From positions 27,734 through 91,733 of IMG/VR virus record IMGVR_UViG_3300032319_000326: a stretch of 64,000 bases of DNA. The stretch is one strand, 5' to 3'. Below are positions 46,685 through 57,553 of the stretch, piece by piece. Position 1 is the stretch's first letter. Each line of letters begins with the position of its first letter. The DNA is from a virus. Lineage: Duplodnaviria > Caudoviricetes. Position numbers and translations under genes: made by a program. A model generated the notes under the pieces. The model was not told the origin of the DNA, ran no database searches, and was given only the letters and a program-made list of their open reading frames with translations.

Positions 46685-48394
46685 ATGAAACAAGTATTGA
46701 TTGATGTAATGCCATTTGAATTTAAGAGATCCGCCTTAAATGAATCGCTTAAGGACGGAAAACTACTAGTTAGTGGTGTATTACAACGTGCTGATGCAAA
46801 AAACCAAAATAATCGACTTTATCCCGAAGATGTACTAAAAAGAGAATCTGAAAAGTACATGCAAAATTTTGTAAAACAACGTCGAGCTATGGGGGAACTA
46901 GATCACCCGGAATGTCACCGAGCTAGTGCTCAAGCATTGACTATTGATGGGTGGAAATATATTGAAGATATTGTTGTTAATGAAAAAATCGCAACTTTAA
47001 ATACAAAAACAAATTCTATAGAATACCAACACGCCTTAAGAGTTATTAATGAACCATATAAAGGTAAAATGATATCTATTAAAGGTAAAAATATAGATTT
47101 ATTGGTTACGCCGAATCATAGGTTTGTCTTAAATACAAGAAATGGTGAATTTATAGAAAAAACTGCGCAAGAAATATTTGAAATTTCAAAGATTAACAAG
47201 TATCCACATTTATCTATTCCGACCGTGGCAGATAATTGGGATGGTATAAAATATGATATTTTCAAAATAGATGCTGTCAAAGTCGAAGATATTGCTAATA
47301 ATCAATCGTTGGATTATACTATCAAACAGACCACCTCTTTAGATTTAAATGCCAGTGCTTGGTTTTCATTTTTAGGTTTTTATTTGGCTGAAGGTCATTG
47401 TGTAGATAGAAATACTTCTACTGGATATGGCATATTTATCACTCAAAACAAAGGTGAAATCGCTGATGAATTCAGAGAAATATTAAAGCAGTTAAGTCCC
47501 GAACTAAAATGGAACGAATGGGACAAAGGAGATGGTGGAACTGTGTTTAACACATCTGACGTGCGGTTATGGACTTATCTTTCCAAATTGGGGAATAAAT
47601 ATAATAAATATATACCTCAAGAAATAAAAGATGCTTCACAAGACCTTCTTCAAAATTTATATGATTGGTATTTAAATGGAGATGGAACAGTTGTGGGGGA
47701 TTATGAAAGATCATCGATATTTTCGGTATCTAAAGAATTAATAGAAGATCTTTATGAAATTATATTAAAACTCGGAATGACCGGGGTTATTAAAGAACAA
47801 GTAACAACCGATGATTATATGTTTGCTGGAAGGTTAATCGAAGCAAAAAATAAAGTTCCGTTATATAGACTATGGATTAAAGAATCTAAAGCTATACATC
47901 TAGATTTTAGATTTATAAAAATAAAAGAAGTTGATTATGACGATAGGGTTTATTGTTTAACAGTTGATAACGGTGTATTTTATTGTAGAGATTTAAACAA
48001 ATGTTTTTGGTCTGGAAATTCATCGGTGGTAAATTTAAAAAATGTCAGTCACAACATTGTAGATATGGGTTGGGATGGTAAAGATTTAGTTGGTACAATA
48101 GAAATTCTTCCTACACCAAGTGGTAATATCTTAAGAGACCTGTTACAATCAGGTATTCTTTTGGGTATCAGTAGTCGTGGATTGGGAAGTGTTAAAAAAG
48201 ATATGCGTGAAAATGCAGATGTTGTACAAGATGACTTTGACTTAATTGCTTTCGACTTCGTAAGCAATCCAAGTACACAAGGAGCTTTTATGTATCCACA
48301 GGGAAAAATCAATGAAAGCGTTGAACAAAAAATAATAGTTAATCCGTATAGTAATGTTGAAAGAATTATTCACAACATTCTATCAGAGTTATAA
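46685..48394 (+). CDS. Prohead protease (T4 gp21-like) with intein; ~200 aa after splicing
   Basis: QRADAKNQNNRLYP, GELDHPE|...|SSVVNLKNVSH, GISSRGLGS, FDFVSNPST. Start reassigned to ATG 46685. Confidence 0.92.
   Translation: MKQVLIDVMPFEFKRSALNESLKDGKLLVSGVLQRADAKNQNNRLYPEDVLKRESEKYMQNFVKQRRAMGELDHPECHRASAQALTIDGWKYIEDIVVNEKIATLNTKTNSIEYQHALRVINEPYKGKMISIKGKNIDLLVTPNHRFVLNTRNGEFIEKTAQEIFEISKINKYPHLSIPTVADNWDGIKYDIFKIDAVKVEDIANNQSLDYTIKQTTSLDLNASAWFSFLGFYLAEGHCVDRNTSTGYGIFITQNKGEIADEFREILKQLSPELKWNEWDKGDGGTVFNTSDVRLWTYLSKLGNKYNKYIPQEIKDASQDLLQNLYDWYLNGDGTVVGDYERSSIFSVSKELIEDLYEIILKLGMTGVIKEQVTTDDYMFAGRLIEAKNKVPLYRLWIKESKAIHLDFRFIKIKEVDYDDRVYCLTVDNGVFYCRDLNKCFWSGNSSVVNLKNVSHNIVDMGWDGKDLVGTIEILPTPSGNILRDLLQSGILLGISSRGLGSVKKDMRENADVVQDDFDLIAFDFVSNPSTQGAFMYPQGKINESVEQKIIVNPYSNVERIIHNILSEL
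46913..48019 (+). mobile_element. Prohead protease intein (369 aa), LAGLIDADG, ends in GN
   Basis: HPE|CHRAS..LTIDGW, VTPNH, FLGFYLAEG, YLNGDG, VYCLTV...WSGN|S. Confidence 0.88.
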
Positions 48395-48473
48395 TTTTAT
48401 AAACACATCAATTTTTTAATTGTTGTGTTTTTTAATAATTCGGTTTATAATTATATACCAAGACAAACGCTGT

Positions 48474-52915: not shown

Positions 52916-54745
52916 ATGAGTATGGATATTAAAAGTCTATTGACAAACAATATGAATCCACAGGCCAAATTAATGGCAGAAACACGTGGACTACAAGGCA
53001 AATGGGAAAAGACAGGCCTCCTAGAAGGTTGCAAAGGTGTTGAAAAAGCACACATGTCAATCCTATTAGAAAATCAAGCAAAACAATTGCTAGACGAAGC
53101 AACCACAACTGGTACCTCCACCAGTTCAGAACAATGGGCTGGCGTAGCTCTTCCATTGGTTCGTCGTGTGTTTGCTGAAATCGCTGCGAAGGAATTCGTA
53201 AGCGTTCAACCAATGAATCTACCATCCGGTCTAATCTTCTATCTAGACTTCAAGTATGGTACAAACGCTCCCGGACAAGATTTGCGTAACTTGAACAACG
53301 GTAGTTCTGTAACTACCCGTGGTGGTAAGCAATTGAACGATAGTTTGTTCGGTGGTACAGGTAAGAAGTTGGGTTCAACTGATAGCACAGTACGTGGTCT
53401 ATACGGTCAAGGTGCTTATGCTTATTCAATCCGTCCAGTAAGTAGTTCCGTTGTTACTCTAGCTAAAAGTGCAACCGCAACTTCAATCGGTAACACAATT
53501 CAAACAGCTTCATGGAACGACGTGCAATTTGATGCTGATTTGAGTTCATCCGTAGTAGCTAAGAAGTTGTTCAAAGTAACCTTGAATCACAGCGATAACG
53601 TAACTACTGGTATTGCTGCCAATGGTTATATGTACAACGTTGACTTGAATGCAGTACGTTCATTCAACTTAATCTCAGGTTCAACCACTCCAACATCTCT
53701 AAGAAGTAATGGTTTGGTATTGAATACATATTCTAGAGCAATTAATACTGGTAGTTTAAATACACCATTCTATCAATCAGTATATATCATATCTGCTTCT
53801 AACAGTGCATTGGGTGGTGTAGCAAGTAAGGTTAAATTGGTCTATAGTTTACAACCTACCGATAACCTACGTGGTGACTTTGAAGCTGGTAAGACAGCTG
53901 GTGAAGGTTCTGGTCAACAAGGTAACGTTGCTACACAAAGCATCGATACTGATATTAGTATCCCAGAAGTTAACTTGGTACTAAACAGCGAACCAATCGT
54001 TGCTAAGACCCGTAAGTTGAAGGCAGTCTGGACCCCAGAATTGGCTCAAGACTTGAACGCATATCATTCTATCGATGCAGAAGCAGAATTGACTGCTCTA
54101 TTGAGTGAATATGTATCTATGGAAATTGATCTTGAAATCCTAGACATGTTGAACGAATCCGTTGAAGGTATAACAACCGAAGCTTGGTCCGCCCAAATCG
54201 GTGTTGAATTCAGCAAGACATTGAATGCAAATACTGGTGAAGCATTCTTCACACGTAATGCAAACAGTTCACCAAATCGTACTGCTTACGTAAAGAGCAC
54301 TTGGTTCCAAACTCTTGGTAACAAGATTCAAAAGGTATCTAACACAATCCAAAAATTGACCCTACGTGGTGGTGCTAACTTCTTGGTCGTAAGTCCAGAC
54401 GTAGCAACCATCTTGGAATCAATCCCAGGATATGTAGTAAACACCGACGGTGACAGTGCTAAGTTCGCAATGGGTGTTGCAAGAGTTGGTAGCTTCGCAA
54501 GTCGCTTCCAAGTTTACAAGAACCCATATATGACCGATAATATCGTATTGGTTGGTTTCCGTGGAAATAACTTCCTAGAAACAGGCGCAGTGTATGCTCC
54601 ATACATCCCACTAATCCAAACTCCATTGGTCTATGATCCAGTGAACTTCACTCCACGTAGAGGTGTAATGACCCGCTACGCTAAGAAAGTCGTACGCCCT
54701 GAATTCTATGGAAAAGTTATTATCGGTGATCTCGATACCGTATAA
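52916..54745 (+). CDS. Major capsid protein (T4 gp23-like)
   Basis: LPLVRR, VQPMNLPSGLIF, AKTRKLKA.WTPELAQDL, EIDLEI, YAPYIPL, GVMTRY. Confidence 0.97.
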   Translation: MSMDIKSLLTNNMNPQAKLMAETRGLQGKWEKTGLLEGCKGVEKAHMSILLENQAKQLLDEATTTGTSTSSEQWAGVALPLVRRVFAEIAAKEFVSVQPMNLPSGLIFYLDFKYGTNAPGQDLRNLNNGSSVTTRGGKQLNDSLFGGTGKKLGSTDSTVRGLYGQGAYAYSIRPVSSSVVTLAKSATATSIGNTIQTASWNDVQFDADLSSSVVAKKLFKVTLNHSDNVTTGIAANGYMYNVDLNAVRSFNLISGSTTPTSLRSNGLVLNTYSRAINTGSLNTPFYQSVYIISASNSALGGVASKVKLVYSLQPTDNLRGDFEAGKTAGEGSGQQGNVATQSIDTDISIPEVNLVLNSEPIVAKTRKLKAVWTPELAQDLNAYHSIDAEAELTALLSEYVSMEIDLEILDMLNESVEGITTEAWSAQIGVEFSKTLNANTGEAFFTRNANSSPNRTAYVKSTWFQTLGNKIQKVSNTIQKLTLRGGANFLVVSPDVATILESIPGYVVNTDGDSAKFAMGVARVGSFASRFQVYKNPYMTDNIVLVGFRGNNFLETGAVYAPYIPLIQTPLVYDPVNFTPRRGVMTRYAKKVVRPEFYGKVIIGDLDTV

Positions 54746-54774
54746 TATTTGATTTAAAACCTCAATAAACACAG

Positions 54775-54802
54775 GGCTTTCATGAAAATGAAAGCCTTTT
54801 TT
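54775..54802 (+). terminator. Intrinsic terminator after MCP
   Basis: GGCTTTCAT-GAAA-ATGAAAGCC-TTTTTT. Confidence 0.9.
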
Positions 54803-54890
54803 ATTATATACACGATTAGTTTCAAAAAAATTACAACGGTCTCTAGGAAATTAGTTGTATTTTTGTTATAGTATTATATACTTATTGTAT

Positions 54891-56714
54891 ATGAATAAAA
54901 ACGGAAATGAGATAACTATAACAGAAGAAGAATCTAAGACGTGTAAAGTTTGTGATATTCGGTTTGACTCTCCTAGAAAAAGAATGTGGCATATCAAAAA
55001 AGAACATAAACTTGATTTTGAAGAATATGTAATAAAGTTTTATTATGATGGGGTAGTTCCTACATGTTTAAAAACAGGAAAATCTTTGAGTTTTAAAGCG
55101 AACCAACTTGGTCCTTGGTTTAAAAATTATACAAAAAATTGTTTTCCACGAAACCCACATTCACAACAAACAAAAAATAAGATAAGAGATGGGTGTGAAA
55201 AAAATTCAATTAAAAAATATGGAGTAAAAAATATATTTCAATCTGATTGGTGTAAAGAAAAAATTAAAAATACAATGATTGAAAGATACGGTGTAAGAAA
55301 CATAATGGAAAATTGTGATATAAAAGCAAAAGTCTTATCTTCTTTCTTTGAAACTATAAGAAACAGACCAAAAAAAATATATGATGTTACAGATTACGAC
55401 CCAAATAAACCATCATCATTGGAGAATGATTTAAAAAATAAATTAACCGATTTAAATATTGAATTTGAATCTCCGTTTATATTTCAAGGAAAACGGTATG
55501 ATTTTTATATTCCTATAATAAATGTCGTTATAGAATTAGATGGAAACGCTTTTCACAAAGAAACTTTGGAAGAATTAAGTTTAATGACATTAAATAATAG
55601 CATAAATGATTATAATAAAAACAATTTAATTAAAGATACTAAATATAATTTTTACAGAATTAGATATGACACCAATAAATTTATATTTGATGAAAATGAT
55701 GATTTATTTAATAAAATTAAACAATTTGAATATTCCCCAAGTTATTCTATAAAATATAAACAAAAAATTATATCTAAAGAATATTTCTCAAGATATATTG
55801 AGAATAAAGGAAAGGATAAATTAAAATCTTATAGTAAATTATTATTAAAATTTATTAGATTATTTCAACCTAGACTACCGAGATATGAATTGGAGGAGGA
55901 TATAAAAGATGTTATGTCGAAGATTTCACTACAGGATTTTTCCAAAGTTTATTTTGATGGAACATTTCACAACAATATATCTACAACTGGACATAATTAT
56001 TTAAAATATTATTTTGAGTCATATTGGAAATCCGCTTATAAAGGAAACAAATCTCCTGTTGATTGTTGGTTGGATGATGAATTGATGCAAAAAATTATTG
56101 AATATCGAATTGGTTGTAATAATTCGGATGAGGTTTATGATTTTAGTTTGTATCAAATGGTGAAAGGGTTGTCGGCGAACAGAAAAACAGTTTCATTTTT
56201 TAAGCCTACATTAGCTGCTGGAATATATAAACATTATTTAAAAAACAACAATTCTCCGTTTGTTTTAGATCCGTGTTGTGGTTTCGGTGGAAGATTATTA
56301 GGATTTAAATCTGTCTATCCGAATGGAAAATATATAGGTTGTGAACCTAATGTTGAAACTTACAATGAATTGATACAAATGATTGACCGTGAGAAATTTA
56401 CGGATGTTAAAATTTATAATTGTAAGTTTGAGGATTACAATGATACAAAAGATGTCGATTTTACATTTACAAGCATTCCTTATTTTGATTTGGAATCATA
56501 TTCTAATGTAGTAAATTATGATGATTTTAATCATTGGAAAAATACATTTATAAAATCTATAGAATCGTGTCATAATTGTTATATAAATACATCCATCCAA
56601 TTGGCAAAAGAATTGAATTGGAATGTTGTGGATTCGTATATTGTATCAAACGGTTCACATTTTGATAAAAAGAATGGAATGTCTACAAAAACGGAATTGA
56701 TTGTAAAAATATAA
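54891..56714 (+). CDS. C2H2 Zn finger + Vsr/EDxHD-type endonuclease fused to amino-DNA-methyltransferase-like domain
   Basis: CKVC..HIKKEH, KYG repeats, YDFY..VIELDGNAFH; DPCCGFGGRL (motif I) and FTSIPYF (motif IV-like). Start reassigned to ATG 54891. Confidence 0.75.
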   Translation: MNKNGNEITITEEESKTCKVCDIRFDSPRKRMWHIKKEHKLDFEEYVIKFYYDGVVPTCLKTGKSLSFKANQLGPWFKNYTKNCFPRNPHSQQTKNKIRDGCEKNSIKKYGVKNIFQSDWCKEKIKNTMIERYGVRNIMENCDIKAKVLSSFFETIRNRPKKIYDVTDYDPNKPSSLENDLKNKLTDLNIEFESPFIFQGKRYDFYIPIINVVIELDGNAFHKETLEELSLMTLNNSINDYNKNNLIKDTKYNFYRIRYDTNKFIFDENDDLFNKIKQFEYSPSYSIKYKQKIISKEYFSRYIENKGKDKLKSYSKLLLKFIRLFQPRLPRYELEEDIKDVMSKISLQDFSKVYFDGTFHNNISTTGHNYLKYYFESYWKSAYKGNKSPVDCWLDDELMQKIIEYRIGCNNSDEVYDFSLYQMVKGLSANRKTVSFFKPTLAAGIYKHYLKNNNSPFVLDPCCGFGGRLLGFKSVYPNGKYIGCEPNVETYNELIQMIDREKFTDVKIYNCKFEDYNDTKDVDFTFTSIPYFDLESYSNVVNYDDFNHWKNTFIKSIESCHNCYINTSIQLAKELNWNVVDSYIVSNGSHFDKKNGMSTKTELIVKI

Positions 56715-56746
56715 AATTTTTAAACCATAATAAATTTTAATAAAAC

Positions 56747-56773
56747 AAACCCCAACTTTCGTTGGGGTTTTTT
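56747..56773. terminator. Bidirectional terminator between convergent genes
   Basis: AAACCCCAAC-tttc-GTTGGGGTTT flanked by A/T tracts. Confidence 0.85.
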
Positions 56774-56779
56774 CTTGCA

Positions 56780-57553
56780 CTATTCGAAAAATTCGTTTGT
56801 AGAATTTACAACTATTTCTTGCACTTCTTCTTTGAACGAAGTATCTTTGGGGTAACTACGAACTTTATGTTTTAGAGATTTAACCAGTTTCTTATTTTCT
56901 ATCTTGTTGCTTATAAACTTGATATAACGATGTTTACCGCTTTCACGTTTGCGCCAAAATGTTCTACCAATACGTTCTTTTAATTTATCTACACTGTGTG
57001 TTTTCCAACGTGCATATACACTTCTACTATGTATCCAATCATATTCAGTGGGGCCAATCAAACTAACACTATAGTTAGGCATCAGTGCAATATCCACATA
57101 GTTATCACCTTGATATACAAATCCAGTTGCTTGATATATTGTACCAACGTGACCAGCTTCACTATCTGCATAACTCAAAATACATTTTATTTGTGGATAG
57201 TCTATATTTAATAATCTAAAACTTTCAGCTATACAATAACTTTCTATATTTTTACCATAACCATCTGCAATCCACAGTCGTGTTAATTCCAACACATTGT
57301 TATTAGTAAGTAGAGGAGATATGCTGGTACTTGCATTTCTACCCACGGCATTTCCATATACTAATACACCTATTAGGCGTTCGTTAAAACCACCAAAGAA
57401 CGTGCTTTCAATAAACTCTTTATAATAAACTCCATACGCTACAGTACAAAGAGACCATTTGTGTGTATAATGGTTTTTTTCAATAAGAGTTTTTGCAACA
57501 TTCTTATTGATGTTTTTTAGATAAAGTAATGTAGGGTCAAAATACTCCGACAT
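56780..57553 (-). CDS. Mom-like DNA modification protein (GNAT fold)
   Basis: KNHY, GVLVYG, LELTRLW, ESY.I, SYADSEAGHVGTIYQATGF. Confidence 0.75.
   Translation of the reverse strand: MSEYFDPTLLYLKNINKNVAKTLIEKNHYTHKWSLCTVAYGVYYKEFIESTFFGGFNERLIGVLVYGNAVGRNASTSISPLLTNNNVLELTRLWIADGYGKNIESYCIAESFRLLNIDYPQIKCILSYADSEAGHVGTIYQATGFVYQGDNYVDIALMPNYSVSLIGPTEYDWIHSRSVYARWKTHSVDKLKERIGRTFWRKRESGKHRYIKFISNKIENKKLVKSLKHKVRSYPKDTSFKEEVQEIVVNSTNEFFE

Follow-up and report, generated by a model that had tools for sequence, protein, structure and literature searches.

Look-alikes of a capsid-gene codon word at the promoter of a phage nuclease-methyltransferase gene as probable target-mimic operators

The promoter of a nuclease-methyltransferase gene situated directly behind the major capsid protein (MCP) gene of a phage carries two inverted, tandem look-alikes of a codon word of that capsid gene. 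The initial annotation of this DNA had interpreted the look-alikes as operators that mimic the target of the nuclease in rival capsid genes, and had assumed that the capsid allele of the phage itself is recoded. Comparison with related loci supports the first part of this proposal, in that the look-alikes of the NFLETG word form a conserved, tandem, promoter-abutting arrangement that appears to be specific to the nuclease subfamily, but the assumed recoding of the own allele did not hold at the motif. We consider it probable, if well short of certain, that the two units are autoregulatory operators of the I-TevI type which imitate the homing target, and that the nuclease binds them with the module that reads the MCP word and thereby probably represses its own promoter.

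The DNA analysed here (the window) comprises 64,000 nt of a 91.7-kb IMG/VR viral contig. Labels of the form L### denote comparison loci from other viral and metagenome contigs, and HEG designates a P0001-type nuclease gene behind the MCP gene. The locus contains the following features.

52916..54745, plus strand: MCP gene, T4 gp23-like, 609 aa (Pfam Gp23, E=6.6e-73)
54569..54586, plus strand: MCP site A, AAC TTC CTA GAA ACA GGC (N-F-L-E-T-G), the word imitated by the units
54671..54691, plus strand: MCP site B, ACC CGC TAC GCT AAG AAA GTC (T-R-Y-A-K-K-V), imitated at the promoters of subfamily 2 in other phages
54751..56735, plus strand: putative mobile cassette of ~2 kb, limits approximate, with its own terminator, operators, promoter and nuclease-methyltransferase gene
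54773..54798, plus strand: cassette-borne intrinsic terminator, a hairpin followed by a T run (terminator scan)
54815..54832, minus strand: putative distal operator unit, reverse complement AAT TTT TTT GAA ACT AAT, a degenerate copy with all 8 invariant positions AAnTTnnTnGAnA
54835..54852, minus strand: putative proximal operator unit, reverse complement AAT TTC CTA GAG ACC GTT, 18.9-19.0 bits with the MCP-site matrix
54855..54882, plus strand: sigma-70-like promoter of the nuclease gene, TTGTAT-16 nt-TATACT (read from the sequence)
54855-60 and 54877-82, plus strand: promoter hexamers, -35 TTGTAT and -10 TATACT (read from the sequence)
54891..56714, plus strand: nuclease-methyltransferase gene P0001, 607 aa (Pfam DUF7487; PHROG 'homing endonuclease')
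56747..56770, no strand assigned: ancestral bidirectional terminator, common to HEG-free relatives
56780..57553, minus strand: Mom-family DNA-modification gene, convergent (Pfam Mom, E=1.2e-43)

The reverse complement of 54837-54855 (ACTAATTTCCTAGAGACCG) is identical to MCP positions 54566-54584 (AATAACTTCCTAGAAACAG) at 15 of 19 positions, as stated in the initial annotation, and the sequences quoted there are correct. The second, degenerate unit (reverse complement AAT TTT TTT GAA ACT) is likewise present and the tandem pair is real, with an offset between the two 18-nt units of exactly 20 nt that is found in other lineages, too. Both units are located, as had been reported, between the terminator and the promoter of the nuclease gene. 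The -35 hexamer begins 2 nt past the end of the proximal unit; as only three of the six bases of this hexamer match, the promoter does not reach the threshold of the consensus scan. On reading the sequence, no second MCP site was seen 20 nt from site A that would mirror the tandem units. Several simple readings were discarded: a small minus-strand ORF for an NFLETG-like peptide has no start codon and a TAA 7 codons upstream in frame, the 20-nt spacing puts the two units out of frame with each other and thus speaks against a coding function, and a general promoter element is at odds with the lack of any other strong copy of the units in 64 kb. Beside another endonuclease gene of the window, positions 48455-48473 and 48245-48263 agree at ~12 of 19 positions by hand count.

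The nearest isolates to the window MCP, Microcystis phage Mel-JY01 and Flavobacterium phages, share ~50% aa identity with it, and a megablast search with the region yielded no match among isolated phages. In the closest MCP relatives (89-94% aa; L003-L011, L029), the MCP gene is followed by 65 bp with a CCCCAAC hairpin and then by Mom, and P0001 is missing. The same hairpin recurs in the window after P0001 (56747-56770), indicating that a cassette of ~2 kb (roughly 54751-56735) was inserted a few bases past the MCP stop codon, between this codon and the ancestral terminator. By this comparison, MCP was originally flanked on its right by the Mom gene, which lies ~65 bp past MCP in the HEG-free relatives. 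The stem of the ancestral terminator, CCCCAAC/GTTGGGG, is shared between the window (56747-56770) and L004:5850-5875; its 4-nt loop reads TTTC in the window and GAAA in the relatives, as though flipped. The cassette-borne hairpin at 54773-54798, at which MCP transcription of the window phage is predicted to be terminated, is homologous to the hairpin of L082, from which its stem differs by paired changes; it is not a homologue of the CCCCAAC hairpin found in the clade of the window.

Among the contigs found with P0001, nearly all of those with enough upstream sequence have the homologue directly after MCP (the exceptions are L068, L132, L134 and L143), and their MCP identity to the window spans 39-86%. 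The window and L082 share 88% identity in the nuclease and 66% in MCP; with L027, the window shares 86% identity in MCP and 41% in the nuclease. Such a distribution is the signature of what appears to be a free-standing gene of the homing type that has specialised in the capsid locus. A different gene was observed in the same MCP-Mom spacer of L002, L003, L006, L013 and L022-L025, namely a GIY-YIG endonuclease gene (MKSGIYKITN...) with a TTGACA-17-TATACT promoter just past the MCP terminator, making this spacer a hotspot for different homing genes.

The protein P0001 consists of an N-terminal Zn-finger-like and DUF7487 region, a Vsr-like core (aa 175-263) and a SAM-dependent N-methyltransferase (aa ~300-607). 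The Pfam match to DUF7487 reaches 29.6 bits at a cut-off of 27, and L085 and L087 lack conservation of the Zn-finger-like CxxC...HxxxxH motif. A weak profile match (E=0.007) links residues 175-263 to the catalytic domain of I-Bth0305I (PDB 3r3p_A); D204, E215, D217 and H222 align to its catalytic positions and are invariant in six homologues. I-Bth0305I is the founder of the EDxHD/Vsr-like family of homing endonucleases (PMC3239194). A faint match of the nuclease region to the Mom structure 8bv8 (E=0.084) was also noted. The full-length model from a six-sequence alignment attained a pLDDT of 45 and is used for no claim, whereas the C-terminal ~300 aa were modelled at a pLDDT of 87 as a class I SAM N-methyltransferase fold. 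Methyltransferase motif I (DPCCGFGG) is clear; motif IV is a variant SIPY in place of the expected (D/N/S)PP(Y/F).

The inverted look-alikes and the position of the cassette can be combined into the following mechanism. The MCP word is situated ~160-180 nt before the MCP stop codon and ~180 nt from the insertion point of the cassette, and codon positions 1 and 2 of site A, the putative recognition target of the nuclease, are near-invariant across ~50 distinct MCP alleles. The putative N-terminal DNA-binding region of P0001 would recognise the MCP word AAC TTC CTN GAA ACN GGN. In a co-infecting phage without the cassette, binding at this word would lead to a break, and repair from the cassette-bearing genome would copy the cassette in. 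The same protein would bind both inverted copies on one face of the helix, as suggested by the 20-bp spacing, in a position abutting its own -35 hexamer, and operator binding would limit its own transcription in the way known for I-TevI. We infer the identity of the binding protein, repression as the result of binding, the role of the MCP word as the site that directs cleavage, and the escape of the carrier from cutting. Activation instead of repression is possible as well, because the units, apart from those of L130 and subfamily 2, are located upstream of the -35 hexamer and do not cover the core promoter.

The assumption that the own capsid allele is recoded was contradicted at the motif by the HEG-free relatives. 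Over site A and the 25 nt flanking it on either hand, the window does not differ at any base from the HEG-free loci L004, L008, L010 and L029, all of which share the core AAT AAC TTC CTA GAA ACA GGC GCA with the window. A comparison of the codons at this motif between MCP genes with and without the downstream nuclease, as proposed in the initial annotation, likewise showed that carriers in general keep high-scoring sites. The CTA codon is found in 1 of 10 carriers in comparison to 31 of 57 loci without the nuclease (Fisher p=0.014, uncorrected for phylogeny), a depletion that is suggestive but is given no weight here, and the window itself has CTA. The mismatches between unit and MCP that look synonymous are due to operator variation at wobble columns and not to changes in the capsid gene. 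One carrier, L087:3697-3714, is an exception with AAC TTC TTT GAG TGT GGT (N-F-F-E-C-G), which scores 12 bits in comparison to 24-32 in the other carriers; it represents a single case of an altered-looking carrier target, amino-acid changes included.

Over the last 252 nt of MCP, the window differs from the HEG-free loci L008, L010 and L029 at only seven positions (54592, 54601, 54604, 54688, 54694, 54700 and 54703), all of them synonymous. These differences fall into two patches, one 6-18 nt 3' of site A and the other at the 3' edge of site B; the clustering has a permutation p=0.003-0.012 in a post-hoc test, and four of the seven positions show the state of L082. The two patches may be short conversion patches or resistance changes beside the binding words. 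No long co-conversion tract from an L082-like donor was found in the last 175 nt of the window MCP.

Given that the site of the carrier equals that of HEG-free phages, self-cutting is expected if the word is the full target, unless the carrier is otherwise protected. The unchanged carrier site makes the fused methyltransferase the obvious candidate for protecting the carrier genome from cutting. It is also known that recognition sites located in the promoters of some restriction-modification systems set promoter activity. An explanation in these terms would regard the units and the MCP word as substrates of the fused methyltransferase, whose modification marks self and sets the activity of the promoter. 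We regard this methylation switch as unlikely, while noting that it overlaps with the operator reading and does not exclude it. Apart from the need for a protection that is not encoded in the sequence of the carrier target, it is in agreement with the finding that conservation within the protein is highest in the methyltransferase domain, where the motifs LDPCCGFGGRLLGFKS and FTSIPY are invariant, and with the class I N-methyltransferase fold and its kinship to DNA methyltransferases: among proteins of known structure, the DNA adenine methyltransferase M.BseCI is the best match by sequence (E=1e-4), and some distant homologues carry Pfam N6_N4_Mtase, Eco57I and N6_Mtase matches. On the other hand, the fold matches also include tRNA and small-molecule N-methyltransferases, and the SIPY version of motif IV is unusual.

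Returning to the operator reading, the similarity between the units and the MCP word had to be separated from chance in AT-rich intergenic DNA, for which a shuffle test had been suggested in the initial annotation. In terms of plain identity the match is at the level of chance, since at least one 15/19 match somewhere in MCP was obtained in 49% of the dinucleotide shuffles of the 145-nt spacer. This test, which weights wobble and invariant positions equally, is kept as a caution and is superseded by position-weighted and all-window tests. A weight matrix was built from 24 unique 21-mers of MCP alleles of phages without a downstream nuclease gene and applied to both strands of the window (128,000 positions). 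The MCP site itself ranked first with 35.3 bits and 54832-54852 on the minus strand ranked second with 19.0 bits, while the third rank reached only 6.2 bits. In an unbiased scan with matrices for every 21-nt window of a codon alignment of 57 nuclease-free MCP genes, the NFLETG window was the best MCP match to the spacer upstream of the nuclease in five of six lineages (the window, L082, L085, L087 and L095). When all 1,649 matrices were run over the whole 64 kb, about six distinct loci reached the same score, corresponding to p ~0.01 for any one 145-nt block for the window alone. As to the distal unit, the pattern AAnTTnnTnGAnA of the eight positions that are invariant in the other lineages, all of which it matches, occurs only 16 times in 128,000 positions, so that p is ~1e-4 for meeting it at precisely this 20-nt offset. 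The doubt left by these tests is removed by the cross-lineage comparison.

Viral and metagenome contigs were searched with MCP and with P0001, which yielded more than 150 loci. Ten lineages, with nucleases that share 45-88% identity with P0001, keep the minus-strand unit; these lineages share ancestry, and their operators are therefore non-independent draws. The unit starts 55-56 nt before the ATG of the nuclease in the window, L082, L085, L087, L080, L095 and L145; in L130, where it overlaps the -35 region, the distance is 35 nt. This places the unit within 35-56 nt of the nuclease start in eight of the ten lineages. The units of L124 and L129 precede an intervening HNH-like ORF. The unit of L145 is a perfect 18/18 match (AAC TTC CTT GAA ACC GGT, 29.6 bits), and that of L080 scores a weak 9.9 bits. 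A second unit exactly 20 nt away is clear in five lineages (the window together with L082, L095, L145, L124 and L129). The shared layout is a unit, 2 nt, a unit, 2 nt, the -35 hexamer, 16-17 nt and the -10 hexamer; the 2-nt gap between the proximal unit and the -35 hexamer was found in nine lineages, and promoters at the corresponding position read TTGACA-17-TATAAT in L087 and TTGAAC-17-TATAGT in L080.

An Endo VII/HNH-like ORF (...CQDCNRGLGNFHDD...) is located between the tandem operators and the P0001 homologue in L124:960-1329 and L129:1130-1500, where the operators would govern a two-nuclease operon. In L080:5790-5822, the mimic of site A is followed in the same orientation by a half resembling site B (TAT GCC AAA AAG ATA), giving an element that looks like a composite of both MCP words.

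The variation among the units follows the codons of the capsid gene. Set in the MCP frame, the fourteen units have the invariant positions AAnTTnnTnGAnA in common; variation is found at the wobble columns and at the first base of the Leu codon, while the first and second codon bases are otherwise invariant. On average, codon positions 1/2/3 carry an information of 1.75/1.56/0.74. Column by column, the information of the units follows that of the MCP alleles (r=0.67, p=0.0009 by permutation of columns). A tolerance of wobble positions in a coding target has been described for the homing endonuclease I-AniI (PMC3943268), and by analogy the pattern agrees with a protein whose evolution was shaped by a coding target and which tolerates the synonymous variation of this target. 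The units do not track the MCP allele of their own genome, which they match at 19 of 54 wobble positions in comparison to a permuted mean of 23.9, and this argues against both RNA pairing and gene conversion.

More distant P0001 subfamilies lack the NFLETG mimic. The unbiased scan of all MCP windows revealed that subfamily 2 (L108, L102, L137, L141) instead carries a promoter mimic of another conserved MCP word, ACN CGN TAY GCN AAG AAR (T-R-Y-A-K-K). The mimic starts 27-33 nt upstream of the nuclease ATG within the promoter region; L108 attains a score of 26.9 bits, whereas the scores of L102, L141 and L137 are 12-13 bits. The spacer upstream of the window's own nuclease is without a mimic of site B. 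Two subfamilies, two capsid words and two matching promoter mimics make a coincidence very unlikely, and this pattern would be the expected product of a retargeting of the nuclease in which the operator followed. In L108:2590-2661, the TRYAKK mimic was read from the sequence as an inverted repeat flanking the -35 hexamer, GATACGCAAAAAA..TTGCAT..TTTTCTTAGCGTATC; L103 also carries the TRYAKK mimic.

It is conceivable that the units are non-functional relics, i.e. inverted scraps of MCP captured during break repair or insertion and carried along with the cassette. Their position at the 5' edge of a mobile cassette and the degenerate state of the distal copies would be in line with such scars. Nevertheless, we consider this origin quite improbable, given that the register to the -35 hexamer is fixed down to 45% protein identity, that the invariant positions are held while the wobble columns drift, and that a second subfamily possesses a different promoter mimic. 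Furthermore, the operator-promoter block 54818-54893 is identical between the window and L082 at 75 of 76 positions where the ORF is identical at ~87%. The evidence of purifying selection on the units likewise weighs against scars.

A likeness to MCP that arose by coincidence and was spread by descent, the units being in fact the binding site of another phage or host factor, would be compatible with the chance-level raw identity and with the origin of all lineages from one ancestor. An unrelated regulator of this kind is very improbable in view of the absence of another copy in 64 kb, the codon-like periodic variation in the MCP frame (p=0.0009) and the independent mimic of a different MCP word in subfamily 2. 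Finally, although the units could pair with the coding strand of MCP and are located downstream of it on the same strand, it is hardly credible that a read-through MCP transcript folds back and pairs with the NFLETG codons to affect mRNA stability or translation, because a strong terminator separates the MCP gene from the units, most lineages could pair at only 11-15 of 18 positions with their own MCP, co-variation with the own MCP at wobble columns is missing, and tandem units spaced by 20 nt at a promoter form a pattern at the level of DNA; RNA pairing with the own MCP was rejected on the wobble-column matches.

If the units are indeed target-mimic operators, they provide predicted recognition words, the NFLETG and TRYAKK capsid codons, for an uncharacterised family of nuclease-methyltransferases, and an indirect read-out of the base-by-base tolerance of this family. 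The unchanged target of the carrier and the conserved fused methyltransferase raise the question of how self-cutting is avoided, which bears on phage-phage competition at the capsid locus. A more far-reaching model unites these elements in one homing restriction-modification protein, in which one module reads the 18-bp capsid word, the Vsr-like domain cuts unmodified copies of rivals, the methyltransferase marks the own copy, which would account for its lack of change, the promoter copies sense occupancy or methylation, and subfamilies have been retargeted to TRYAKK with their operators switched. We put this model forward as speculative and rather doubtful. If it were true, the operators would record the specificity and the wobble tolerance of each nuclease in a form readable by comparative genomics alone.

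In single-chain restriction-modification systems of Type IIG/IIC, a nuclease and an amino-methyltransferase are joined in one polypeptide, and some restriction-modification promoters carry the recognition site of their own system. P0001 resembles them in its nuclease/methyltransferase fusion and in a promoter copy that could couple expression to occupancy or methylation. In contrast to these systems, the putative word of ~18 bp is unique to one gene, as is typical of homing, and not a short and frequent site, and P0001 revealed no domain comparable to the target-recognition domains of Type IIG enzymes.

With I-Bth0305I (PDB 3R3P) and the phage endonuclease Hef (PMC3239194), P0001 shares a Vsr-like core, the aligned Asp/Glu/His residues and, putatively, a separate region for DNA binding, and like other EDxHD/Vsr-like homing endonucleases it is phage-borne and mobile. 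The similarity to I-Bth0305I is weak (E=0.007). I-Bth0305I is encoded by an intron in recA, unlike P0001, and its nuclease is C-terminal and accompanied by NUMOD motifs, while the nuclease of P0001 is central and followed by an additional methyltransferase of ~300 aa. In phage T4, segD is located between genes 23 and 24, and SegF, SegG and MobE mediate intronless homing as free-standing endonucleases (PMC2988022). P0001 is comparable to the free-standing endonucleases of T4 in its own promoter, its position wedged between conserved genes, its sporadic occurrence and its putative targeting of the neighbouring gene, and to segD in its location right after a capsid gene. The T4 enzymes have a GIY-YIG or HNH fold, unlike P0001, and neither an operator mimic nor a fusion to a methyltransferase is described for their genes in PMC2988022.

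The closest functional parallel is I-TevI, whose operator is identical to its own homing site at 15 of 20 positions and mediates autorepression (PMC2988022). I-TevI is an intron-encoded GIY-YIG enzyme, whereas the P0001 gene is free-standing and encodes a Vsr-like nuclease together with a methyltransferase; the single operator of I-TevI overlaps a late promoter, whereas two inverted units 20 bp apart abut a sigma-70-like -35 hexamer in the window. Binding and repression are proven for I-TevI and predicted for the window. Common to both is a promoter sequence resembling the homing site (15/20 in I-TevI and 15/19 for the putative target in the window), so that one DNA-binding module could serve both homing and self-regulation. 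The operator reading would therefore extend a form of self-regulation shown so far for one intron-encoded GIY-YIG enzyme to free-standing nucleases of another fold, and its occurrence in ten lineages and for two mimicked sites suggests that phage homing genes may quite generally be designed with target-mimic operators.
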